A program made the translations under genes and the position numbers. The notes under the pieces were generated by a model. The model saw only the letters and a list, made by a program, of their open reading frames with translations, was not told the DNA's origin and did no database searches. Shown here piece by piece: positions 6,389-17,075 of a DNA stretch of 35,352 nucleotides (position 1 is the first letter of the stretch; each line of letters starts with the position of its first letter). Origin of the DNA: a virus; IMG/VR virus record IMGVR_UViG_3300045988_127559; one strand, written 5' to 3'.

Positions 6389-6843
6389 TGAAAGAAAGCA
6401 AGTATTATCTACAAAATTGGAAGAAATGGAAACGCACTGTTCAACTTTTGGAAGAAACTAGAGACGAACTAATGGACATGAAACGTGCTATTCCTATTGG
6501 AAGTGATAATATGCCAGGTGGGAACCACAGTAGCGTTATTGCCAAAATGCAAAAGATAATAGACCAATGCGATCAATACGATGTTCTTATAAGCAATTAT
6601 AATTTTCTTATTAATTCGCTGGAACGTGCGATAACTGTTTTAAACGAAGAAGAAAAAGAAGTGTGCATTATATTTTCTAATAACCCAGATAATTCAGATG
6701 TAAGGGAAGCTATAGCATCTAAACGAGGGTATTCAAGATCGGTATTTTATCGAAAACTTGATGATGTATATATTAAGCTTAATATGTTGTTATGTTTAAG
6801 CCCGATAATGACAATCGATGATTATGATAAAGAAATATATTAA
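6388..6843 (+). CDS. Late-gene transcriptional regulator (sigma-70 region-4-like; ArpU/RinA/DUF1492 type)
   Basis: Last gene before terS. About 150 aa with LNEEEKEVCIIF...GYSRSVFYRKLDDVYIKL, an HTH-like C-terminus typical of these phage late activators. Confidence 0.55.
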   Translation: MKESKYYLQNWKKWKRTVQLLEETRDELMDMKRAIPIGSDNMPGGNHSSVIAKMQKIIDQCDQYDVLISNYNFLINSLERAITVLNEEEKEVCIIFSNNPDNSDVREAIASKRGYSRSVFYRKLDDVYIKLNMLLCLSPIMTIDDYDKEIY

Positions 6844-6847
6844 TAAC

Positions 6848-6880
6848 AAACTGGGACTAAACTGGGACTAAAATAGACTA
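6848..6880. repeat. 11-bp tandem repeat AAACTGGGACT (2 perfect copies plus 1 degenerate)
   Basis: aaactgggact aaactgggact aaaatagacta lies directly after the regulator stop codon. Confidence 0.85.
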
Positions 6881-6972
6881 TTTATGTGTTATTATTGTAT
6901 TGTGGGAAATTGGTTAATCCACACGGCGACATGTTTTTTAGTTATATTTCTAAACTCCTTTCATTTTTATAA

Positions 6973-6995
6973 AGCGGTCAAATGACTGCTTTTTT
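6973..6995 (+). terminator. Rho-independent terminator ending the early/middle operon
   Basis: agcggtc-aaat-gactgct stem (7 bp including one G-T) followed by TTTTT. Confidence 0.6.
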
Positions 6996-7044
6996 GTTAT
7001 CTAAGACGATATTATTACTCTCCCTATAGTATCGTCTTAAATAA
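6996..7044. promoter_or_regulatory. Long inverted repeat upstream of terS (14 of 15 bp arms, 18-nt loop)
   Basis: ttatCtaagacgata (6996-7011) pairs with tatcgtcttaAataa (7030-7044). The core taagacgata/tatcgtctta is perfect. Confidence 0.7.
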
Positions 7045-7118
7045 CATAAGGGGCATGAAAATGGACGATGATGAAGAATTAGACAACATAATAGATATAT
7101 ATTGGAGGTGCTTTAAGA

Positions 7119-7517
7119 ATGGCAAAACACTTAACAGATGCGAAGAAAAAGAAAATAATAGCCGATTATGTAGGGTGCGGAAACTATTCGGAAGTAGCAA
7201 GAAAAAACAAGGTATCTAAAGATACTGTTAGGAGATTATGCAATCGCACGGATATTCTTCAAAAAGCGCAAGAGAAAAAAGAGCAAAACACCAAAGATAT
7301 GCTTGAATACCTAGATAATAAAAAACAAGATGCAATGGAATTCATTGACATGGCGTTAGCATCGATGATGGAACCAGAAAAACTAAAAAAATCAAGTGTG
7401 CAGGCATTAGCAACATCAATCGGGATAATAATAGATAAATTCACACCAACAGTACAAACAGATCAATCGTTAGAGAAATTAGACAAGGTATTGGAAAAAA
7501 TAGGCGGTGTCATTTAA
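7119..7517 (+). CDS. terS: Terminase small subunit
   Basis: Immediately upstream of terL. N-terminal HTH (KKIIADYVGCGNYSEVARKNKVSKDTVRRL). SD GGAGGTG. Confidence 0.8.
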   Translation: MAKHLTDAKKKKIIADYVGCGNYSEVARKNKVSKDTVRRLCNRTDILQKAQEKKEQNTKDMLEYLDNKKQDAMEFIDMALASMMEPEKLKKSSVQALATSIGIIIDKFTPTVQTDQSLEKLDKVLEKIGGVI

Positions 7518-8734
7518 TGGCATTTACACAAAAACAACGTGAGTTTTTAGATAACGCTAATCATCGTTGGAATATAAAGCAAGGAGCGACACGTAGCGGT
7601 AAAACCTACTTAGATTACTTTGTTATTCCAAAACGAATAAGGCAAGTTGCTGGAAAAGATGGATTGGTTGTTATTTTAGGAAATACAAAGGGCACACTCC
7701 AAAGGAACGTAATAGAGCCTTTGCAAAATATATATGGAGAACAGTTAGTTGGTAATATTAGAAGCGATAATACCGCGAATATGTTCGGGGAGAAAGTATA
7801 TTGCTTAGGAGCGGATAAGATTAACCAAGTAAACAGAATAAGAGGGGCAAGTATTAAATACTGCTATGGTGACGAGGTTGCGACATGGCACGAAGAAGTA
7901 TTCACAATGCTTAAATCGCGTTTAGATAAGCCGTATAGCAAGTTCGACGGAACTTTAAATCCCGAAAGCCCACACCACTGGCTTAAAAAGTTTCTAGAAA
8001 GTGATGCAGATATATACTGTCAATCTTACACAATAGACGATAACCCGACACTTGACCCATCGTTTGTGGCTAATCTAAAGCAGGAATATGCTGGAACGGT
8101 ATACTATGATCGTTATATCTTAGGATTATGGAAATCGGCTGAGGGTGTAATATATACGCAAATAGCAGATAGACCACAAGATTATGTTATCGATGAAGCA
8201 CCGCCTATTATGTTTGCTACTATTGGAGTAGATTTTGGCGGTAACGGTTCAGCAACCACATTTAATTTAACGGGATATACTTCGGGAATGAACGAGGTAA
8301 TAACTTTGAAAGAGTACTACCGTAAAGGCATTATGACGCCTAAAGAATTAGAAGAAGATTTTTTGACGTTTGTAAAAGAGTGCAAACGATTTTTTATTGT
8401 AACAGACGCTTACTGTGATAGTGCTGAGCAAACTCTTATAAGAGGGTTGAAAGTCGCAGTAGCAAAAGAGGGAATAGGGCTAAGCATACATAATGCAAGG
8501 AAAGGTGAAATAAACAACCGCATACGCTTTTTTTGTCGTTTACATGGCATAGGCAAGCATAAAATCATGCGCGAATGTAAATACACCTTAGAAGCATTTC
8601 AAACTGCTGTATGGGATTCTAAATACGTTACAAAGGATGTTAGGCTGGATGATGGAACATATAACATAGATAGTTTGGATGCACAAGAATATGCGGTAGA
8701 GCCGTATATGAACCAAATTATCGATATATGGTAG
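7517..8734 (+). CDS. terL: Terminase large subunit (PBSX-type)
   Basis: Walker A GATRSGKT, Walker B-like CYGDE, C-terminal nuclease region. 405 aa. Confidence 0.95.
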   Translation: MAFTQKQREFLDNANHRWNIKQGATRSGKTYLDYFVIPKRIRQVAGKDGLVVILGNTKGTLQRNVIEPLQNIYGEQLVGNIRSDNTANMFGEKVYCLGADKINQVNRIRGASIKYCYGDEVATWHEEVFTMLKSRLDKPYSKFDGTLNPESPHHWLKKFLESDADIYCQSYTIDDNPTLDPSFVANLKQEYAGTVYYDRYILGLWKSAEGVIYTQIADRPQDYVIDEAPPIMFATIGVDFGGNGSATTFNLTGYTSGMNEVITLKEYYRKGIMTPKELEEDFLTFVKECKRFFIVTDAYCDSAEQTLIRGLKVAVAKEGIGLSIHNARKGEINNRIRFFCRLHGIGKHKIMRECKYTLEAFQTAVWDSKYVTKDVRLDDGTYNIDSLDAQEYAVEPYMNQIIDIW

Positions 8735-8745
8735 GAGGCGTGCAG

Positions 8746-10365
8746 ATGTTTAAAAAGATAAAAAAGAAAGTAAAAGAGGTGGCTACGAAATTTATGGCAG
8801 ACAGTGGAATGAGAGAACCTATTAAAGATATATTTGAATTGGGCGGTGTTCCTGCGTTTAACCAGTTTTATTATTTTGGTATCTTTCCATGGAAGTATAT
8901 TTATAAAGGCTTTTATAAACCGTGGCATCGAGTGTTGTCACCTACGTTAAAAGACCCTATACGAAAAAGAAATATAGAAACAATGGGAATTGCTAAAGCA
9001 GTGTGTGCGGAACTGGCTGGATTAATATGGAGCGAGCAATGCGAAGTACATGTTTCTTCGGGAAAAGAACTCGGAGAAAATGAAACAGATCCTCTAGACG
9101 ATTATATCCAAAAAGTTTTAAAAGATAATGCCTTTTTTACAAAGATGCAGGAACATATCGAGCAGTCTTTGGCACTTGGGGGCGGAGCACTAAAAGTTTG
9201 GGCGGAAGCAGATCATTTAGACGGTAAACCAGTACTAGGAAGCGAGCATATTGAAATTGGCTATGCTATGGCAGATCAGTTCGTGCCAACTGCATGGACA
9301 AACGCCAAAGTTACAGAGGGAGTATTTATAAGCCGAGAAGCAAAGAACGGGTATTATTACACGCGGTTAGAGTGGCATAAATGGAATGGAACTACATATG
9401 TAGTTGAAAATGAATTATTTAGAAGTGAAATTAAAAATATTAAAAATGCTAGCGGTGAAGTTGAACCGCAGGATATTTTAGGTTTTAGATATCCACTGCA
9501 AACAATATATCCATTTTTGAATGAATCAACTTCGATTGAACATGTAGAGGATAGTCTATTTTACTATTACAGAACAGCTATTGCGAACAACATTGACGAT
9601 AACAGCCCATTAGGAGTAAGTATTTATGCTAATGCATTAGCAACATTACACGCGTTAGACATTTGTTATGACAGTTTCGTACGCGAGTTTGTGTTAGGAA
9701 AGAAGAGAATAATTGTCCCAGCGAGTGCTGTTAGAATGGTGGTTGACCCTGAAACTGGCGAAAGAAAAAGATACTTTGATGCAAACGATGAAGTGTATGA
9801 AGCATTAGCAACGGATGATACAGAACAATTAAAAATACATGATAATTCTGTTGAGTTGAGAGTAGAAGAACACATAAGCGCAATTAATGCTTTTTTAAGC
9901 ACCTTATGTTTACAACTGGGATTTAGTGCAGGAACGTTTACATTTGATAAATCACAAGGACTAAAAACCGCAACAGAGGTAATCTCCGAGAATTCCAAAA
10001 CATATAAAACTATAAAATCACATCAATTACAAATAAAAGAAGCAATTGAAAAAATGATCAAAGGAATAGTTAATGTTGCGGATTTATACGACATTGAGTA
10101 TAAAGGGCAACGTGTTGGAAATATGGCTAATGATGATTTAGAGATTAAAGTAATCTTTGATGATTCAATCTTACAAGACCGACAAACAAACGTTAATGAG
10201 GGAATTGTATTAGTAAATAACGGTTTAATGTCTAAATTAACTTATATGGAAAAGGTGCTAGGAATGACGGGAGAAGAAGCACTTAAAGAAATAGAAAAAA
10301 TAAAAAAAGAAAATCAAATAAATACAATAGCGGTTGATGATTTCGCTCTTGGCGGTGAAGAATAG
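8746..10365 (+). CDS. Portal protein (SPP1 Gp6-like)
   Basis: About 540 aa directly after terL. ATG 8746 follows TAGGAGG. Confidence 0.85.
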   Translation: MFKKIKKKVKEVATKFMADSGMREPIKDIFELGGVPAFNQFYYFGIFPWKYIYKGFYKPWHRVLSPTLKDPIRKRNIETMGIAKAVCAELAGLIWSEQCEVHVSSGKELGENETDPLDDYIQKVLKDNAFFTKMQEHIEQSLALGGGALKVWAEADHLDGKPVLGSEHIEIGYAMADQFVPTAWTNAKVTEGVFISREAKNGYYYTRLEWHKWNGTTYVVENELFRSEIKNIKNASGEVEPQDILGFRYPLQTIYPFLNESTSIEHVEDSLFYYYRTAIANNIDDNSPLGVSIYANALATLHALDICYDSFVREFVLGKKRIIVPASAVRMVVDPETGERKRYFDANDEVYEALATDDTEQLKIHDNSVELRVEEHISAINAFLSTLCLQLGFSAGTFTFDKSQGLKTATEVISENSKTYKTIKSHQLQIKEAIEKMIKGIVNVADLYDIEYKGQRVGNMANDDLEIKVIFDDSILQDRQTNVNEGIVLVNNGLMSKLTYMEKVLGMTGEEALKEIEKIKKENQINTIAVDDFALGGEE

Positions 10366-11543
10366 TGGCAATGATAACGCGCCAACAAATATTAGAAATA
10401 AGTGAACCGTTTGAGGAAATGTATAGCGGTATAACTAATCAAATTCTAATAATGATGGCTGAATACATTGGTAAAGATATTGATGAGCCGATTGAGGTTT
10501 GGCAACAAAAAAGGATCCAAGAAATTAATTTATTGTTAAAACATACGCAAAGTATTATAAGCAGTGGCAGATATCTAAGCACTACTAATAACACGTTAAA
10601 TACCGTTATAGATAAAACTTTGGAGGATATAGAACCAAAATTACAAGAAGCATCTAAAAACGGTCTATTAAAGAAAACAACCGCTTATACAGCTAGCTTA
10701 AGCATCAATGAACTTAAGAAAAATATGAAAGAAGATTTCTTAATAACATTTAATACAATGGGTAATACCATGCAAAGTATGATATTGCAATTGTTTAATA
10801 AAACATTAAATAATGTTGTTTCTGCATATAATACAAGAAGAAATGAGATATTAGACGAAGCCACAGAAAAGATAATGCATAGAGAAACAATGCAAAATGC
10901 TGTTGCAAGTGCAATAAGGCAAATAGCTAAAGAAAATATACCAGCATTTATAGATAAAGCAGGAAGAAAATGGACGGCCGAAGCCTATGCGAATATGTAT
11001 GTACGAACAAATGTTCACAACTTGAGTATAGATACGGTTGTAAAAAGAAATGAAGATTATGGGAACGATTTATTTATTGTTTCTAAGCATAGCGGTGCAA
11101 GACCCAAATGCGCTCCGTGGCAAGGGAAGATAGTTTCAAAAAACAACAGAAAAGGAACAACAACCGATGCGAACGGTAAAAAAGTAAGTTTTATAGCTTT
11201 GTCAAGTACAAGTTACGGTCAGGCGGATGGATTGCTTGGTATTAACTGCGGGCATCAACTGTATCCGTTTATACCTAAACAATCGATTAATAACGTTAAG
11301 CCTTTATCAAAGGAGCAGGAAAGAGAAAATAAACGTATATATGAAGAAAGCCAACAACAGCGTGCTATTGAACGCGAAATCCGCGCATCAAAGACACAAG
11401 AGGAAATGTATAGAAAAGCTGGCTTAAGAGATGAAGCTGATAAGCAAAAAACTATAACAAGTCAAAGACAAGCTAAAATGAGACAGTTTATAAATGAAAC
11501 GGGTCGAACACGACGATATGATCGCGAACAAATCGTTAAATAA
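10365..11543 (+). CDS. Minor capsid / head morphogenesis protein (Phage_min_cap2, SPP1 gp7-like)
   Basis: Positioned after the portal. Motifs SKHSGARPKCAPWQGKIVS and GLLGINCGHQLYPF. Basic coiled-coil C-terminus. Confidence 0.75.
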   Translation: MAMITRQQILEISEPFEEMYSGITNQILIMMAEYIGKDIDEPIEVWQQKRIQEINLLLKHTQSIISSGRYLSTTNNTLNTVIDKTLEDIEPKLQEASKNGLLKKTTAYTASLSINELKKNMKEDFLITFNTMGNTMQSMILQLFNKTLNNVVSAYNTRRNEILDEATEKIMHRETMQNAVASAIRQIAKENIPAFIDKAGRKWTAEAYANMYVRTNVHNLSIDTVVKRNEDYGNDLFIVSKHSGARPKCAPWQGKIVSKNNRKGTTTDANGKKVSFIALSSTSYGQADGLLGINCGHQLYPFIPKQSINNVKPLSKEQERENKRIYEESQQQRAIEREIRASKTQEEMYRKAGLRDEADKQKTITSQRQAKMRQFINETGRTRRYDREQIVK

Positions 11544-11568
11544 TGATAAAAAAACAGGAGGGTAAACA

Positions 11569-11724
11569 ATGGATTGCAAACATGAATTTATGGGCGACAA
11601 AGATGGAGTAACATGCCTTAAATGTGGTTTAAAAATGGGAGTGCAAGAATACCATGATTTTTTACAACAAAAAGAAGTAAAAGAACCTAAGAAGCCATCT
11701 TCAAGAAGAAAAGGAGCTAAATAA
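11569..11724 (+). CDS. 51-aa zinc-ribbon-like protein (below the ORF-track cutoff)
   Basis: MDCKHEFMGDKDGVTCLKCGLKMGVQEYHDFLQQKEVKEPKKPSSRRKGAK. C-x-H...CxxC plus a basic tail. Strong SD AGGAGGG 6 nt upstream. Stop overlaps the next ATG. Confidence 0.6.
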   Translation: MDCKHEFMGDKDGVTCLKCGLKMGVQEYHDFLQQKEVKEPKKPSSRRKGAK

Positions 11725-12176
11725 TGAATCCATATCAAGATTTAACATCATATTTAAAAATCGTATATCAAAATTTAGGAACTCTGCATCATATGTTAGT
11801 AGGCAAGAGTTTTTTTGTTATCCATCCATTATTGGGTGAATGGTACAACGAAATCGGTGAAATGACGGATGATTTAATTGAACGAGGTATTCCGTTAGGG
11901 TTTGCTGAACCGTCTATTAAAGATGCGGTTTTAGCTTACACAAACGATTTACTTGGCGTTGAGAACAGAGAATGTGAAGATACAATCATTCTTGCAAGAG
12001 ATAATTTCATTAATATTATTGAAAAAATGACAACTGCTAAAGACGGTTTACCCGTTGATGTTCAAAACAAGATTGATGAATATATTTATTATTTGCGTAA
12101 AGAAGCAGATTACAAAATGGGTCAATATCTAGGCGGTATGAAGAACACAACGACAGTTGATATTGATGATGATTAA
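11724..12176 (+). CDS. Dps-like miniferritin (ferritin-fold, DNA-protection-during-starvation family-like)
   Basis: LGTLHHMLVGKSFFVIHPLLGEWYNEIGEMTDDLIERGIPLG aligns by eye to Listeria Dps IHQIHWYMRGHNFFTLHEKMDDLYSEFGEQMDEVAERLLAIG. The ferroxidase ligands H, H, D, E are conserved. 150 aa is the typical Dps size. Confidence 0.65.
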   Translation: MNPYQDLTSYLKIVYQNLGTLHHMLVGKSFFVIHPLLGEWYNEIGEMTDDLIERGIPLGFAEPSIKDAVLAYTNDLLGVENRECEDTIILARDNFINIIEKMTTAKDGLPVDVQNKIDEYIYYLRKEADYKMGQYLGGMKNTTTVDIDDD

Positions 12177-12209
12177 ATAATTAGCATCTAAGAGTGCTTT
12201 TTATATTTT

Positions 12210-12236
12210 AGGACGTTTTATACGTCCTTTTATTTT
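12210..12236 (+). terminator. Rho-independent terminator after the Dps-like gene
   Basis: aggacgt-tttat-acgtcct (perfect 7 bp) followed by TTTATTTT. A weaker hairpin agca..tgct+TTTT sits at 12183-12202. Confidence 0.7.
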
Positions 12237-12251
12237 GCCCTCGTCTATCGG

Positions 12252-12298
12252 CGTTAAATGTAGGCTTTCGGTTACGTCTGCATCCGTTAAATGTAGGC
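12252..12298. repeat. 14-bp direct repeat CGTTAAATGTAGGC x2, starts 33 bp apart
   Basis: Exact copies at 12252-12265 and 12285-12298, between the terminator and the scaffold gene SD. Confidence 0.85.
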
Positions 12299-12336
12299 AC
12301 ACGTTATTTATTAGTTTAAACGCAGGAGGAAGAATA

Positions 12337-12849
12337 ATGCCAAAACTAACAAGAAAAAGTGTACGTAGTGAAATTGTTAAGGCTGGAGTAAGTGAAGATA
12401 AAGCCAATGAATTATTAGAAAGCATTATGTCTATGTATGGAGCTAGCACTGCTGACATGGTTTCTAAAGAAGATTTGGAAGAACTTAAGCAAGAAGCGGT
12501 CAATGAAGCTATGAAAAACACACCTAAAGACTACAAAGAAAGTCAAGATTACAAAGATTTATTAGGAAGAGTACAAGAGTACGAAAAGAAAGACACTATC
12601 CGAACATTAACGGATAAAGGAGTTAAAAGCGACAAGTACGCGGAAATGCTCTTGGAAAGATTAGACAAAGAAAAAGACATTGATGAACAGCTTACGGCTT
12701 TTAAAGAGGAATATGCCGATATGTTCAATGTCGAACAACAAGAAGAGCCAAAACCTCAATTTGGAGCACAGCCAAAAGGCACTATGCCAAGTGGCAAAGA
12801 AGCACAAACGTTTGGGGATTTTTGGAGTTTTATGCCAAAAGAAAAGTAG
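12337..12849 (+). CDS. Scaffolding protein (GP20-like)
   Basis: Immediately upstream of the capsid gene. Helical, K/E/D-rich, 170 aa. ATG 12337 follows AGGAGGA; the longer TTG-12235 form runs through the terminator. Confidence 0.75.
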   Translation: MPKLTRKSVRSEIVKAGVSEDKANELLESIMSMYGASTADMVSKEDLEELKQEAVNEAMKNTPKDYKESQDYKDLLGRVQEYEKKDTIRTLTDKGVKSDKYAEMLLERLDKEKDIDEQLTAFKEEYADMFNVEQQEEPKPQFGAQPKGTMPSGKEAQTFGDFWSFMPKEK

Positions 12850-12862
12850 GAGGAATTAATAT

Positions 12863-14068
12863 ATGGCAGATTTTGTGCAAACACCTTTAAATTATGCAGT
12901 TGACTACGCTAGAACACTAGCCAACGCTTATCCTTATTTATCATATTTTCCAGAGTTATGGGCAGGACCGAACAATGAAAAATATAAACCAGTAAACGGG
13001 AAAACAGTAATGATCCCATCGATGACAGTTTCGGGGGCTAAAGCAGTTAACCGTGACAGTATCGACGGTAAATTTAATCGTAATTTCAATACTGAAATGC
13101 AACCCGTTACAATGATGATGGACAGAGAATGGGATACATTAGTTGATCCAATGGACATCAAGGAAACAAATCAAGTGGCTACTATTGCCAATGTAACAGA
13201 AACGTTTAACCAATTCCAAAAAGTGCCAGAAATGGATGCATACATGGCTTCTAAATTGTCATCGTATGCACAATCTTTCGGTACAGTAGATACAACTGTG
13301 TTAGATAAAGATACTATTTTAGAAACATGGGATGGATATTTAGCGTATATGGTTAACCAACGTATCAACCGTGATAGATTGGTAGCGTATATGACACCAG
13401 ATGCGTATAAACTTTTAAAAGAAGCAGCGGGAATTACACGTTTTATCGATGCAGGTACTGGAATTAGAAATGTAGACCGAAATGTCGGGAAATTAGACGG
13501 AGTATTAATTCGAGAAGTACCAAAAGATATTATGCAAACAGCGTTTGACTTTACAGTAGGATGGAAAGTTGAATCTGGCGCAAAAACTATTAATATGTTG
13601 TTAGTAGACCCTATGGCAATGATTGCTCCAGTAGTCTATGAAGTAGCTATGATGAGCGCACCAACTGCACAATCTAAAGGGAAATGGCTATATTACGAAA
13701 GATACTACTACGATGTATTTGCATTAGATAAACGTAGAGTAGGTATCTTAGCAAATATCACTACACCAACTCTTGGAACATTTGAAGTTACGTCAACTGC
13801 TGGAGCTGAAACTAATCAAACAAATGTAGCAGTTACTGCTAAACCAATTCTTGGACAAAAATTAGTGTATAAAGTAGCTTCTAGCGCTTCAACACCTACA
13901 TACGGACAAGATTTATCTAGCGGATGGACTGATTTACCAGCTGATGGCGTAGTAACAGTCGCAGGATCAGAAACGAATATCACTGTTGCATTAGTTAATA
14001 CAACTAAAGCGAATGGAGCTTTCGCGGTTTCAAGTGGTAATGCTACGATCGTTAAAAACGGCGGATAA
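12863..14068 (+). CDS. Major capsid protein with C-terminal Ig-like domain
   Basis: 401 aa, strongest SD (TAGGAGGA), positioned after the scaffold. The last ~104 aa (from 13754) are T/S/V/G-rich with a beta-sandwich-like pattern. Confidence 0.8.
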   Translation: MADFVQTPLNYAVDYARTLANAYPYLSYFPELWAGPNNEKYKPVNGKTVMIPSMTVSGAKAVNRDSIDGKFNRNFNTEMQPVTMMMDREWDTLVDPMDIKETNQVATIANVTETFNQFQKVPEMDAYMASKLSSYAQSFGTVDTTVLDKDTILETWDGYLAYMVNQRINRDRLVAYMTPDAYKLLKEAAGITRFIDAGTGIRNVDRNVGKLDGVLIREVPKDIMQTAFDFTVGWKVESGAKTINMLLVDPMAMIAPVVYEVAMMSAPTAQSKGKWLYYERYYYDVFALDKRRVGILANITTPTLGTFEVTSTAGAETNQTNVAVTAKPILGQKLVYKVASSASTPTYGQDLSSGWTDLPADGVVTVAGSETNITVALVNTTKANGAFAVSSGNATIVKNGG

Positions 14069-14079
14069 GGGGTGATTGT

Positions 14080-14508
14080 ATGGCATATATAAAATATGCT
14101 GATTTTACACAATTTTACGGCAGTGATTTGATGGATGAAGAAACGTTCCACAGTCTCGTTAATCCAGCATGTTCTAAAATTGATGAAATAACCCGTTTTA
14201 AGGTCGCTGAAGAGGGTTTAAACTCTTTAGCACCTTTTATTCAAGAATTGTTTAAACGTGCGTGCATGGCTCAATGTGCGTACTATGGCTATTACGGTTT
14301 AGAAGTAGCCTATACTGGTGTGGCAGGGCAAGGCTTTACGGTTGGCAAAGTAAGTGTGGACAGCACTTATCAGTCAAAAGAAAGCGCAGGAAGAAATTAC
14401 AATTCATTAAGCCCCGAAGCGGTAAGTCTGCTTGAACAGACTGGGCTGTTAAATAGGAGTGTTGGAGTATTCTCAGACCCATCCCTAAACGTATTCTGGC
14501 CGATATAG
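14080..14508 (+). CDS. Head-tail connector/adaptor protein (putative)
   Basis: First gene after the capsid gene. 142 aa. SD AGGGGTG. Confidence 0.5.
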   Translation: MAYIKYADFTQFYGSDLMDEETFHSLVNPACSKIDEITRFKVAEEGLNSLAPFIQELFKRACMAQCAYYGYYGLEVAYTGVAGQGFTVGKVSVDSTYQSKESAGRNYNSLSPEAVSLLEQTGLLNRSVGVFSDPSLNVFWPI

Positions 14509-14831
14509 CCACATTAAAAGTAATTACCAGTATAAACGAATGGCAAAAGCCCGTTATGCAGTCTTATGATTTAAAATTTGTACATATGCAAAACACAAAC
14601 GAAGTACGAAGAACAACAGATAACACTGAGGTCGTTCTTCGCTCAATATTATATTACGATTGTAGGTTGTCTAAGCCAAATTTGAACTTATGGGTATTAA
14701 ATAACCAATCACTTGGAAATGGCGCTAGAATGAGCGTTATTTATCAAGAACAGACATATACTGTTCAAACTTGCGATTTAGTACCCGATGATACTGGCAA
14801 ACCGCATCATTATGAACTTGGGTTAGTTTAG
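14469..14831 (+). CDS. Minor capsid / head-tail joining protein (Minor_capsid_1-like); probable ATT start (conservative ATG start at 14556)
   Basis: The frame is open from 14457. Upstream extension (I)LRPIPKRILADIATLKVITSINEWQKPV looks like the family N-terminus. AGGAG lies 9 nt before ATT 14469, whereas ATG 14556 has no SD. Confidence 0.5.
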   Translation: MLRPIPKRILADIATLKVITSINEWQKPVMQSYDLKFVHMQNTNEVRRTTDNTEVVLRSILYYDCRLSKPNLNLWVLNNQSLGNGARMSVIYQEQTYTVQTCDLVPDDTGKPHHYELGLV

Positions 14832-15175
14832 TGAGCGTTAAAGTTACATTAAATAAACGAAGAGTTCTAAAAAGAATTACAAGCGGTGCCGATAATGCTA
14901 GAGCGGTGTTAACGGAACAAGTTTATCAGGATAGTGACGAATATACCCCTCGTGATAAAGGAAAACTTATAGAAACGGCGCGAATTGATTCTAAAAACGG
15001 AACAATTACATATACCCAGCCATATGCTAAAAAATTATGGAATGGTATAGACTATAATTTTTCTAAAGATAAAAGTGCTAAAGCCACTCATGAGTGGTGT
15101 GATGCAGCTAAAAAAGACCATAACAAGGATTGGCAGAAAGTTGCTCAACAAGCATTTAAAGAGGGGATGAAATAA
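14831..15175 (+). CDS. Minor capsid / head-tail joining protein (Minor_capsid_2-like)
   Basis: GTG start overlapping the upstream stop. YAKKLWNGIDYNFSKDKSAKATHEW motif. Confidence 0.6.
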   Translation: MSVKVTLNKRRVLKRITSGADNARAVLTEQVYQDSDEYTPRDKGKLIETARIDSKNGTITYTQPYAKKLWNGIDYNFSKDKSAKATHEWCDAAKKDHNKDWQKVAQQAFKEGMK

Positions 15176-15558
15176 TGGACATCGAGATTATAAACATTCT
15201 AACGGCTCTTATTAAGGCACAGTATCAAGGAAGCTTAGTTTTTGGTACAAATATACCCGACAATAGTTTGGCACTTCTATGGCGGTCAAATCCGCAAGAA
15301 ATATATATGTGCAAAGACAGTTATAATCATATGAACGTAAGGCTTAACGGAAAAAATAAAGATCAAGAGGAAATATGCAGTACACTAAACCAACTGCACT
15401 ACTTTTTAAGCAAATTAAAAAGTGATCAAATTGAATTAGGCGAACATACGCAAATCATTGATATACAAACATCCTCAAGCCCAGAACTGATAGGGGTAGA
15501 GGAAAACGGTCAATGGATTTACGGATCAAGCCTTTTAATTAAATATTATATTAAATAG
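15175..15558 (+). CDS. Tail completion / Minor_capsid_3-like protein
   Basis: Positioned between the head-tail genes and the major tail protein. SD AGAGGGGA. Confidence 0.5.
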   Translation: MDIEIINILTALIKAQYQGSLVFGTNIPDNSLALLWRSNPQEIYMCKDSYNHMNVRLNGKNKDQEEICSTLNQLHYFLSKLKSDQIELGEHTQIIDIQTSSSPELIGVEENGQWIYGSSLLIKYYIK

Positions 15559-15569
15559 GAGGAAATAAA

Positions 15570-16052
15570 ATGGCTGACGGAGATTTCAAAGCACAGGTAC
15601 AAGTAGAACCAGTTTATAATTATACGGTTGCGATTGACACTACACCCGATACAACAGCGACATGGTCACCATTATGTGCAGGTATCGAAAACTTTAGCGA
15701 ATCATTGAATGAACAAGTACAACAGTTCTTTTTTATGTGCGGTAAAGGATTTGCGAATAACTATGTTACAGGAATGGCACCATCATTGACAATTACTGGG
15801 CGCAGAGTTAAAGGTGATGCAGCACAAGAGTATATCTTTGGTGCTAAATACGCTTTAATGAAAAAAAGAGAAACGCAATTACAAATTTCGCAATTAGATG
15901 CTACGGGAGCAAATGCGCAAACAATTACATGTAATGTAACAATTCAAAATATTGTAGAGATTAACGGAAATGCTACAGACCCGTCACAAATCAGCTTTGA
16001 TTTGGCATTTAATGGAACACCAACATTAAAAAGTACGCCAGTAGGGGGATAA
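15570..16052 (+). CDS. Major tail protein
   Basis: 160 aa, strong SD TAGGAGGA, followed by a terminator and then chaperones and tape measure. Confidence 0.75.
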   Translation: MADGDFKAQVQVEPVYNYTVAIDTTPDTTATWSPLCAGIENFSESLNEQVQQFFFMCGKGFANNYVTGMAPSLTITGRRVKGDAAQEYIFGAKYALMKKRETQLQISQLDATGANAQTITCNVTIQNIVEINGNATDPSQISFDLAFNGTPTLKSTPVGG

Positions 16053-16064
16053 CCCCTACTTTTT
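16041..16064 (+). terminator. Rho-independent terminator/attenuator after the major tail gene
   Basis: gtagggg-gataa-cccctac followed by TTTTT. Overlaps the stop codon. Confidence 0.75.
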
Positions 16065-16086
16065 ATATATATTAGGAGGATGAATC

Positions 16087-16479
16087 ATGTATAAAATCAA
16101 AAGAGATAAAAAATTTAAAGAACAACTTGAAGTCGAAAATGATAATGGTGAAAAACTTACGCTTGATGTTGAAATTACCCTTGATAAACAGCTTAATGAA
16201 TTCACAAAGAACTGGCGCAATCTTGAGGTTATGAATATTAACGTTCAACAAGGTAAATTAGACTATATGCAAATGGGGAATGCGGTTATTTCAATAATGG
16301 GTGTTGTTTTTGGGGAAAACGATGCAAAAAAATTAATAGATTTTTATAACTGTAATTATATTGAACTAATTCAAGACATTTTGCCATTTATTGCAGGGGT
16401 GATTAAACCTCAGTTTGATAAAGTTATAAAAGAACACACTAAACGAAACAAACAAGCACTTAAAGAGTTGACAAAATGA
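16087..16479 (+). CDS. Tail assembly chaperone (putative)
   Basis: Positioned between the major tail protein and the tape measure. SD TAGGAGGA. Confidence 0.55.
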   Translation: MYKIKRDKKFKEQLEVENDNGEKLTLDVEITLDKQLNEFTKNWRNLEVMNINVQQGKLDYMQMGNAVISIMGVVFGENDAKKLIDFYNCNYIELIQDILPFIAGVIKPQFDKVIKEHTKRNKQALKELTK

Positions 16480-17075
16480 TACTTTATAAGAGCTTGCCAA
16501 CAGAGATTAGATACAAAAATAGGAAATATAAAATAAAACCTTATTTTAATAATGTGCTGTTTTGTTTAGAAGTCTTTAATAACAATGCCTATACTGATGA
16601 AGAAAAAATTTATCTTTGCTATAAGGCATTGGTAAAAAAACAACTCACACAACATAATTACACGGAAGTAGTAGCTATTTTAAGCAAAGTATTCGATGTG
16701 CTTTTTGAAGATAAAAACAAGCGTAAAGAAAATAAAAAATCTTTTGATTTTACGCAGGATGCTAAATATATATATGCAGGGTTTATGCAATGTTACGGCA
16801 TAAACCTTTTTGAATACAAAAATAAATTGCATTGGTGGGAATTTAACGCATTGTTTCAAGGGCTATCAAGGGATACTCGAATAATGCAGATAATCGATAT
16901 TCGTACTCGACCTATTCCTAGAAGAGACAAAACAAATGGCGAGTATATAAACAATCTTTTAAAGCAAAAAGCTGAGTATAAATTGGAACTAAGTCAAGAG
17001 GAACAAGAAAAAGAAATACAACAATCGCTTGGCGATTTATTTAGTGCTTTATCAAATATGGCCGAAAAGGAGTGA
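16476..17075 (+). CDS. Phage Gp15-family protein (second tail chaperone position)
   Basis: ATGA overlap. N-terminal pattern ...IRYKNRKYKIKPYFNNVLFCLEVFNN..TDEEK as in A118-type Gp15 proteins upstream of the tape measure. Confidence 0.55.
   Translation: MILYKSLPTEIRYKNRKYKIKPYFNNVLFCLEVFNNNAYTDEEKIYLCYKALVKKQLTQHNYTEVVAILSKVFDVLFEDKNKRKENKKSFDFTQDAKYIYAGFMQCYGINLFEYKNKLHWWEFNALFQGLSRDTRIMQIIDIRTRPIPRRDKTNGEYINNLLKQKAEYKLELSQEEQEKEIQQSLGDLFSALSNMAEKE

Follow-up and report, generated by a model that had tools for sequence, protein, structure and literature searches.

A diverged Dps-type miniferritin and a coupled putative zinc-ribbon protein form a conserved cassette in the head module of uncultured gut siphophages

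Bacterial Dps proteins, for example those of Listeria innocua/monocytogenes (1qgh/2iy4), Bacillus anthracis (Dlp-2, 1jig), Treponema pallidum (TpF1, 2fjc), Streptococcus suis (Dpr, 1umn), and Helicobacter pylori (NAP, 1ji4), are miniferritins of about 150 amino acyl residues that consist of a helical bundle with a short BC helix and carry His-His and Asp-Glu ferroxidase ligands. In encapsulins, a shell with the HK97 fold is reportedly encoded beside the gene for a ferritin-like cargo protein, and this cargo is said to possess a C-terminal targeting peptide on a flexible linker. Among phages, Dps-like genes have been described in Lactobacillus plantarum myophages such as Semele, in the C3 podophage SU10 (CDS67), and in “Gratiaviridae” and 36 other gut phages (PMC6669764, PMC4281155, PMC8008677). 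The present study deals with a protein of this same broad family (PHROG 3636, DUF5856) that is encoded in the IMG/VR virus record IMGVR_UViG_3300045988_127559; the whole stretch analyzed, 35,352 nucleotides (nt) in length, is called the window. It is the complete genome of a temperate siphophage (34% G + C) in which genes for an integrase, a CI-like repressor, replication, terminase, head and tail, and an endolysin can be read. Between the genes for the minor head protein MuF2 and for the scaffolding protein, two coupled open reading frames (ORFs) encode a putative zinc-ribbon protein of 51 residues and a 150-residue Dps-like protein, and this pair is referred to here as the cassette. Dps-like genes of phages are already known, and what appears new is the placement in the head module, the coupling to a zinc-ribbon gene, and an acidic C-terminal tail, three traits that separate the clade of the window protein from the phage genes described earlier. 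No description of such a clade was found in the searchable literature, in line with the initial annotation of this DNA, which knew of no role for Dps within a capsid module. We read the Dps-like protein, with a rough probability of 0.45, as a late-expressed ferroxidase miniferritin that is probably docked to head assembly.

The 150-residue protein is a real, very diverged member of the Dps family and belongs to a phage-specific clade. Searches with phmmer against all PDB chains returned Dps-family proteins only (best match Dlp-2, E = 9e-5), and a profile of 17 family sequences retrieved 24 distinct Dps sequences from the PDB and nothing else, headed by Dps from Listeria monocytogenes (E = 8.6e-8). 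The AlphaFold2 (AF2) model calculated with the family alignment (predicted local distance difference test, pLDDT, 90.5) displays the four-helix bundle and the short BC helix of Dps, with helices at residues 3–24, 30–58, 65–71 (BC), 84–106, and 111–135 and without a fifth E helix. When the model was compared with the PDB by Foldseek, 67 matches with E ≤ 0.001 were obtained, and the best 50 of these 67 are all Dps-family chains (TpF1, Dpr, Dlp-2, HP-NAP, MrgA, and MsDps2), with template modeling scores of up to 0.83. These searches and the model point to Dps, as had been proposed in the initial annotation, and they agree with it also in that the Lys-rich N-terminal tail is absent, since helix A begins at residue 3 without any N-terminal extension; Listeria Dps likewise lacks this tail. 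The Trp behind the first His of bacterial Dps is replaced by His, Arg, or Tyr in the phage clade. Among phage families, phrog_3636 is matched over residues 6–126 (E = 2e-9), DUF5856 is reached only weakly by the window protein (E = 0.11) and matched by its relatives, and matches in BFVD include Semele, LP65, SU10, and phage G. An exhaustive profile search collected 584 family representatives at 50% identity. Identity to solved Dps is only 12–20% (structure-based alignments to the bacterial chains listed above). The clade is old and phage-specific, and hosts are not a recent source of it.

Alignment to Listeria Dps (1qgh; query residues 15–62 on chain residues 24–71) places H22, H34, D49, and E53 on H31, H43, D58, and E62, the same correspondence of ferroxidase ligands that had first been drawn by eye. 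None of the four ligands varies among 17 family members, the most distant of which are 43% identical; they are also kept in tail-less distant members and in fusion proteins, and they are the only invariant polar residues of helices A and B. The set of family-invariant residues (H22, F31, H34, D49, L51, E53, G55, P63, I65, A68, Y130, and K131) is made up of the metal ligands, positions of the BC-helix motif, and two residues in helix D, and the most conserved stretch is the BC-helix motif EPSIKDAV, which is sited at the two-fold interface of Dps. The ratio of nonsynonymous to synonymous polymorphism (pN/pS) is 0.22 for the Dps-like gene among relatives that are 95–100% identical, indicating purifying selection, and 0.35 for the zinc-ribbon gene among close relatives; values for the portal and MuF2 genes were left aside, because indel offsets make them unreliable. 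A Dps fold with a metal site is virtually certain, and iron chemistry has likely been retained.

According to the initial annotation, the cassette consisted of extra genes inserted between the gp7-like minor head gene and the scaffold gene. Profile matches agree on both of these neighbors. A survey of about 100 metagenomic phage and prophage loci from IMG/VR, ENA, and Logan replaces the idea of a private, one-off insertion by that of a conserved accessory component of the head module in a large lineage of uncultured temperate siphophages. The order of genes is portal, MuF2, 0–5 small ORFs, zinc ribbon, Dps, 0–3 ORFs, scaffold, and major capsid protein; searches of IMG/VR with the Dps profile led to 58 loci that have it, as do most of 80 loci retrieved by a capsid profile, and it persists down to 31–39% identity of MuF2 and in the company of unrelated large terminases. 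Hosts are gut Bacillota; Massilicoli timonensis Marseille-P3755 harbors one of the prophages (NZ_LT963434.1, about 377–390 kb), and the cassette is also present in several isolate genomes of IMG, among them 2846293421 and 2887207454. Among 50,697 GenBank phages, a search for near-identical DNA gave no match, and tblastn with the Dps-like and zinc-ribbon proteins found no homolog of either. By capsid protein, the closest cultured relatives are about 40% identical. The adjacency of the two head genes that the initial annotation had expected holds for Bacillus phage IEBH, where the gap is 12 nt, and in the Clostridioides difficile phage phiC2 an unrelated small ORF occupies the slot of the cassette.

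The two genes of the cassette are translationally coupled; their products have masses of 5.9 kDa (zinc ribbon) and 17.2 kDa (Dps-like protein). In the window, the stop codon of the zinc-ribbon ORF and the start codon of the Dps ORF overlap in ATGA, each ORF having its own Shine-Dalgarno sequence, and at almost all loci the overlap amounts to 1–8 nt. The motif C-x-H-x(10–14)-C-x-x-C recurs in almost every partner ORF that was recovered upstream of Dps at the roughly 100 loci, and its ligands (C3, H5, C16, and C19) are invariant in an alignment of four sequences. The basic tail noted in the initial annotation (8 K/R against 2 D/E in residues 33–51; the pI of the protein is 9.1) is retained in homologs down to 30% identity. 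In the AF2 model, with a pLDDT of only 69, strands at residues 7–10, 13–16, and 22–24 and a short helix at 25–37 precede a disordered basic tail (38–51), and these strands and helix are consistent with a zinc ribbon. The protein has no Pfam match above noise and no PHROG match, and a fold search of its model against the PDB gave no significant match (all E > 1). Such a partner might supply a basic DNA-binding tail in trans, and the pair might then condense or cap phage DNA at packaging or ejection, as tailed bacterial Dps does with the nucleoid. Agreement with this idea comes from the conservation of the basic tail, from the tight gene coupling together with P0114, a protein of 178 residues in which a C4 zinc ribbon is fused to a Dps-like domain, and from the PHROG label “DNA binding protein”; moreover, SPP1 gp7, the analogue of the MuF2 gene product, binds DNA. 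However, in a few relatives (loci L032, L038, and L061) a tail-bearing Dps occurs without a zinc-ribbon gene, the PHROG label is an inherited annotation, and the acidic tail and the pI of 4.5 speak against DNA binding by the Dps-like protein. A role in DNA handling seems distinctly improbable to us.

A scan for canonical sigma-70-like promoters detected no convincing candidate in or near the 25-nt gap behind MuF2. A single weak consensus match (9/12; 11494–11522) lies inside the 3′ end of the MuF2 gene, and promoter-like matches in the region 8000–17000 number 25, below the 35.7 expected from shuffled sequences. No terminator was found upstream of the zinc-ribbon ORF. As no promoter of its own is detectable, the cassette is probably expressed late, as the last two cistrons of a terminase-portal-MuF2 transcript. 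Behind the Dps-like gene, two hairpins with T-runs had been described; the second passes the terminator scan (stem-loop 12210–12228 with 7 base pairs [bp], 4 of them GC, a loop of 5, and then TTTTATTTTG), whereas the first is real but weak. What had been taken for the cassette’s own terminator looks instead like a boundary between modules. A hairpin followed by a T-run stands behind Dps in 17 of 47 distinct relative sequences, many of them diverged, and its stem sequences differ; in the other 30, a simple hairpin scan found none. Since the hairpin precedes the scaffold gene in many relatives and no promoter was detected, the terminase-portal-MuF transcript seems to end there, and, where present, the hairpin looks like the boundary between a packaging-portal-MuF unit and a scaffold-capsid unit. 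In the window, the transcript of terminase, portal, MuF2, and cassette probably has its 3′ end, or an attenuator, at 12210–12237. Two copies of CGTTAAATGTAGGC between this hairpin and the ribosome-binding site of the scaffold gene may represent a late-promoter or regulator site; there are no further copies in the window, and at 3 mismatches their count is at chance level. An Rfam search of 11400–12500 gave no match. The strongest terminator-like hairpin of the late region, at 16040–16060 (8 bp, 5 GC, then TTTTTATAT), extends over the last part of the gene for the major tail protein (15570–16052), its T-run lying just past the stop codon; no such hairpin lies behind the major capsid gene.

In comparison with bacterial Dps, which the window gene also leaves behind by its place in a phage head operon, the protein adds a disordered linker and an acidic C-terminal peptide, and residues 139–150 have pLDDT values below 50 in the AF2 model. 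Across 57 unique Dps ORFs, the linker behind helix D varies in length and sequence, and nearly all siphophage head-module copies end in 3–4 acidic residues, often right behind a hydrophobic one (DIDDD, EYDDD, EEDD, EWDD, YEDD, or EEED). The closest of the 584 representatives bear the tail, and distant ones, of 130–140 residues, end right after helix D. In some relatives that lack Dps, the zinc-ribbon gene is kept and is then followed by a gene for a helical protein of 60–80 residues that again has an acidic end (EMDDE, VEDED, GDDDE, or ADDDE). Such replacing proteins are encoded in L084 (4197–4379), L135 (3626–3850), L144 (3941–4186), and L145 (4104–4346), and their interpretation as truncated Dps was rejected (hhalign probability 0.3%). 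Because Dps-less relatives keep the zinc ribbon together with an unrelated acidic-tailed protein, the arrangement suggests a cassette with an exchangeable body, composed of a zinc ribbon and an acidic-tailed protein. It has become less plausible that the acidic tail serves solely to pair with the basic one of the zinc-ribbon protein, because the three relatives without a zinc-ribbon gene possess the tail and locus L131 has a zinc ribbon and no tail.

More distant members of the family occur in other surroundings. Tail-less homologs are encoded beside a RecA-like ATPase or among RNase H and guanylate kinase genes, and in jumbo phages a tail-less homolog follows a virion structural protein; a metagenome scan for tail-less members yielded two loci only, both of the jumbo-phage type. 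In L176 and L177 (3086–6405), a tail-less member stands directly behind genes for thioredoxin and the small and large subunits of ribonucleotide reductase (RNR), which hints at iron supply or protection for the di-iron RNR of this phage. In L174, L180, and L182, which represent another phage group, the tail-less gene ends 1 nt before, or overlaps, a Terminase_2 gene and is thereby the last one before the small terminase subunit, at the early/late boundary. An association of the whole family with heads is rejected by the gene contexts of its tail-less members, and it is the head-module clade that combines the tail with a coupled zinc-ribbon gene. One tail-less homolog is nevertheless located directly behind a MuF-like gene (phrog_15127/2468), in a phage of 61.7 kb whose head module is unrelated (portal phrog_113).

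Fusions of the Dps-like domain also occur. In P0126, a protein of 536 residues, a Peptidase_S77 domain of the T4 gp21-type prohead core protease (E = 1.6e-16, phrog_207) is joined to a Dps-like domain and a long acidic tail. P0126 was not located in IMG/VR; against GenBank, its protease half matches jumbo-phage and T4-type proteases and its Dps half has no match. Three further BFVD entries named “prohead protease” contain a Dps-like domain, and several other relatives have long acidic extensions. Judged by their sequences, the fusions tie the domain to the prohead interior and to zinc ribbons, in other uncultured phages. Owing to the protease fusion in P0126, the Dps-like domain would sit inside the prohead, which recalls the internal head proteins of T4-type phages, whose delivery involves the scaffolding core and the prohead protease gp21. 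Unlike T4, the window module has no prohead protease and its Dps-like protein no N-terminal capsid-targeting sequence, and the protease fusion belongs to a different, uncultured phage. From the fusions and long acidic extensions, the location in the head module, the acidic helical character of the protein (its pI of 4.5 is close to the 4.8 of the scaffold), and its replacement by short helical acidic-tailed proteins in some relatives, one might deduce a co-opted structural or assembly factor, in which the bundle would help to build the head as an additional scaffold, core, or chaperone and iron chemistry would not matter. The invariant metal ligands are difficult to reconcile with a purely structural role, being the most strictly conserved polar residues throughout the family including the fusions; in addition, related phages build their heads without Dps. 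We therefore regard such a role as improbable.

The favored reading is that of a late-expressed ferroxidase miniferritin with probable docking to head assembly. Made late as part of the transcript that would end at the terminator-like hairpin, the subunits would pair across the two-fold axis, and iron would be bound between His22 and His34 on one side and Asp49 and Glu53 of the partner subunit on the other. They would most likely assemble into a Dps-like dodecamer of about 206 kDa, at which the strong conservation of EPSIKDAV hints indirectly, that oxidizes Fe(II) by H2O2 or O2 and stores the product, and Fenton reagents would in this way be removed during packaging of phage DNA. We infer that the flexible linker and the acidic C-terminal peptide might act as a docking motif, for which the partner could be MuF2, the portal, the scaffold, or the capsid interior, the basic tail of the zinc ribbon being a further or alternative one, and that protection might be delivered at, possibly even inside, the assembling capsid. 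A physical association with procapsid or virion is put forward tentatively, as a possibility.

The main rival to docking is a purely cytoplasmic auxiliary Dps, i.e., a plain moron-like gene in a permissive late-operon slot whose soluble product has no capsid link. It would raise the tolerance of the infected anaerobic host or lysogen to oxidative stress and iron, and its acidic tail would help to capture iron or would contact the zinc-ribbon protein. We take this for a serious, if tentative, possibility. It would agree with the terminator behind the cassette, with gut Bacillota as hosts, with the neighborhood of distant members (RNR and thioredoxin, RecA-like, RNase H, or small terminase genes), and with a literature in which phage Dps proteins are treated as oxidative-stress helpers (PMC8008677, PMC6669764) and their genes lie outside head modules (PMC8008677, PMC6669764, PMC4281155). 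On the other hand, the cassette has no convincing upstream promoter, only 25 nt separate it from MuF2, its translational coupling is conserved, and its position is constant at about 100 loci despite mosaic exchange of terminases. Equally hard to reconcile with a loose cytoplasmic helper are the homolog behind a MuF-like gene in an unrelated head module, the confinement of the tail to head-module copies together with its presence on non-homologous proteins of the same slot, and the existence of a fusion to a prohead core protease.

Several observations weigh against docking to the head, or against the assignment on which it builds. The Pfam model Ferritin (PF00210) scores 14.8 bits, below its cutoff of 24.5, and the Dps models of NCBIfam reach about 13 bits where 114–300 would be required; these curated thresholds are missed because of sequence divergence. 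The slot between MuF2 and scaffold is variable: some close relatives of the module are without Dps or have other genes there, and in phage IEBH, which has no cassette, the gap is empty. Dps is thus dispensable in this slot and behaves as genes in accessory or moron slots do, a point that equally suits the cytoplasmic explanation. As tail-less members occur in non-head contexts, the family as a whole is not head-specific, and published phage Dps genes are found in DNA-metabolism or middle regions (PMC6669764, PMC4281155). With regard to the tail, L131 and L133 are without a clear one, L062 is tail-less though in a head module, and since the tail tracks one clade, shared ancestry could explain it; it is unlike known capsid-targeting peptides and could bind metal or only the zinc-ribbon partner. 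A dodecamer of 9 nm could not exit via the portal. Finally, the tblastn search of 50,697 GenBank phages brought no cultured carrier of the cassette to light.

A bolder version of docking would be that the phage loads Dps nanocages or subunits into or onto its capsid by means of the acidic peptide, with the zinc-ribbon protein as adaptor, and that the packaged genome is shielded in this manner. Such loading, which would be a viral counterpart and possibly even an evolutionary relative of encapsulin-ferritin compartments, appears unlikely at present. The likeness to encapsulins consists in a ferritin-superfamily gene just upstream of an HK97-type capsid gene, with Dps, scaffold, and major head protein (phrog_422) following each other within 700 nt, and in a disordered linker with a short conserved C-terminal peptide. 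In contrast to encapsulins, the shell is a genuine phage capsid that must hold 35 kb of DNA, the candidate cargo is of the Dps type instead of Flp, EncFtn, or IMEF, and the peptide is acidic (DIDDD, EYDDD), whereas the encapsulin motif is hydrophobic, with Gly, Ser, Leu, and Ile. The acidic peptide lowers the case for membership among encapsulin cargoes and leaves the analogy.

The position behind MuF2 also invites comparison with MuF toxin-immunity pairs, in which small genes follow a gene of the MuF superfamily (PF06152, i.e., MuF2) located after the portal gene (PMC5576092). The Dps-like protein could then be the immunity protein for a MuF polymorphic toxin or, with its acidic tail mimicking DNA, an anti-defense protein delivered together with the phage DNA. 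Small immunity genes often lie directly downstream of MuF toxin genes; yet only 25.5% of short MuF genes are followed by a small ORF, and an immunity function is to be expected solely for MuF proteins that possess a toxin domain (PMC5576092). In the window, MuF2 is short and consists of a single domain without toxin extension: residues 5–377 of 392 fall within PF06152 (E = 5.1e-70, profile positions 2–366 of 366), and phrog_581 is matched with E = 1e-85. Because MuF2 has no toxin domain, an immunity role is unlikely, and it would leave the conserved ferroxidase site of what is an enzyme-like miniferritin unexplained; overall, we deem it extremely improbable. In a tail-bearing relative (L179, 2422–4611), MuF2 is long (556 residues compared with 392 in the window phage), and a 78-residue ORF and a YjcQ-family gene lie between it and the cassette, an arrangement that may represent a MuF toxin-immunity pair sharing the cassette slot.

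The features of the window on which these considerations are based are collected in Table 1.

Table 1. Positions of the cassette, of its signals, and of neighboring head genes in the window
Feature	Coordinates	Strand	Basis or remark
Terminase large subunit	7517–8734		Late operon
SPP1-type portal	8728–10365		Late operon, after terminase large subunit
MuF2/Phage_min_cap2 (SPP1 gp7-like) minor head protein, 392 residues	10365–11543	+	PF06152, phrog_581
Shine-Dalgarno sequence AGGAGGG of zinc-ribbon ORF	11556–11562	+	Sequence read; within the 25-nt gap behind the MuF2 stop
Zinc-ribbon protein ORF, 51 residues, CHCC	11569–11724	+	Ligand conservation, AF2
Dps-type miniferritin ORF, 150 residues	11724–12176	+	PDB sequence matches, AF2, Foldseek, phrog_3636
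Ferroxidase ligand codons H22, H34, D49, E53	11787–11789, 11823–11825, 11868–11870, 11880–11882	+	Family alignment
Disordered linker and acidic C-terminal peptide V-D-I-D-D-D-COOH	12129–12173	+	AF2, family comparison
Weak hairpin, 5 pairs, 2 GC, then TTTTTATATTTT	12183–12198	+	RNAfold; fails terminator-scan criteria
Intrinsic-terminator-like hairpin with T-run	12210–12237	+	Passes terminator scan
Two exact 14-nt direct repeats CGTTAAATGTAGGC, 33 nt apart	12252–12265, 12285–12298	+	Repeat search
Head scaffolding protein, 170 residues, pI 4.8	12337–12849	+	PF06810 (weak), phrog_194
Major head protein, 401 residues	12863–14068	+	phrog_422, E = 3e-89

The intergenic stretch between Dps and scaffold genes comprises 160 nt, and the scaffold assignment is supported by phrog_194 and by a PF06810 match (E = 1e-7) whose 32.5 bits are below the 35-bit cutoff. 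The start of the portal gene is ambiguous: the longest ORF, of 545 residues, begins with the ATG at 8728 and overlaps the terminase gene (8728–8734), and a public gene call in a 99%-identical contig (L001, 3032) places the start 9 codons downstream, giving 536 residues. Near-identical relatives have their major capsid gene interrupted behind approximately codon 122 (…QKVP|EMDAY…) by an insert of about 850 nt, which is present in L011 (6505–7375) as well as in L012, L013, L081, and L082 and absent from the window phage, where the equivalent position is about 13228. The insert of L011 contains an ORF for an HNH-type endonuclease (6615–7235) and a group I intron match (RF00028, E = 1.4e-8) whose 40.6 bits are below the gathering score of 50.

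Up to now, Dps genes of phages were regarded as loose metabolic helpers, and the clade described here stands apart through its head operon, its zinc-ribbon partner, its docking-like acidic tail, and its relatives fused to prohead proteases. Prophages with the cassette in isolate genomes make the question of head association testable. If recruitment to the procapsid proves true, tailed phages would carry an internal protein that handles iron enzymatically, which would explain how virions of phages of strict anaerobes might withstand exposure to oxygen, iron, and peroxide and would connect phage capsids directly, in terms of function, with encapsulin-ferritin organelles; if the protein is indeed loaded, the packaged genome would have a built-in protection against iron and peroxide in the gut. 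If, in contrast, the protein acts in the cytoplasm, it would still represent a widespread, unannotated subfamily of phage miniferritins, with 584 clusters at 50% identity, and a recurring cassette of zinc ribbon and acidic tail in gut prophages.

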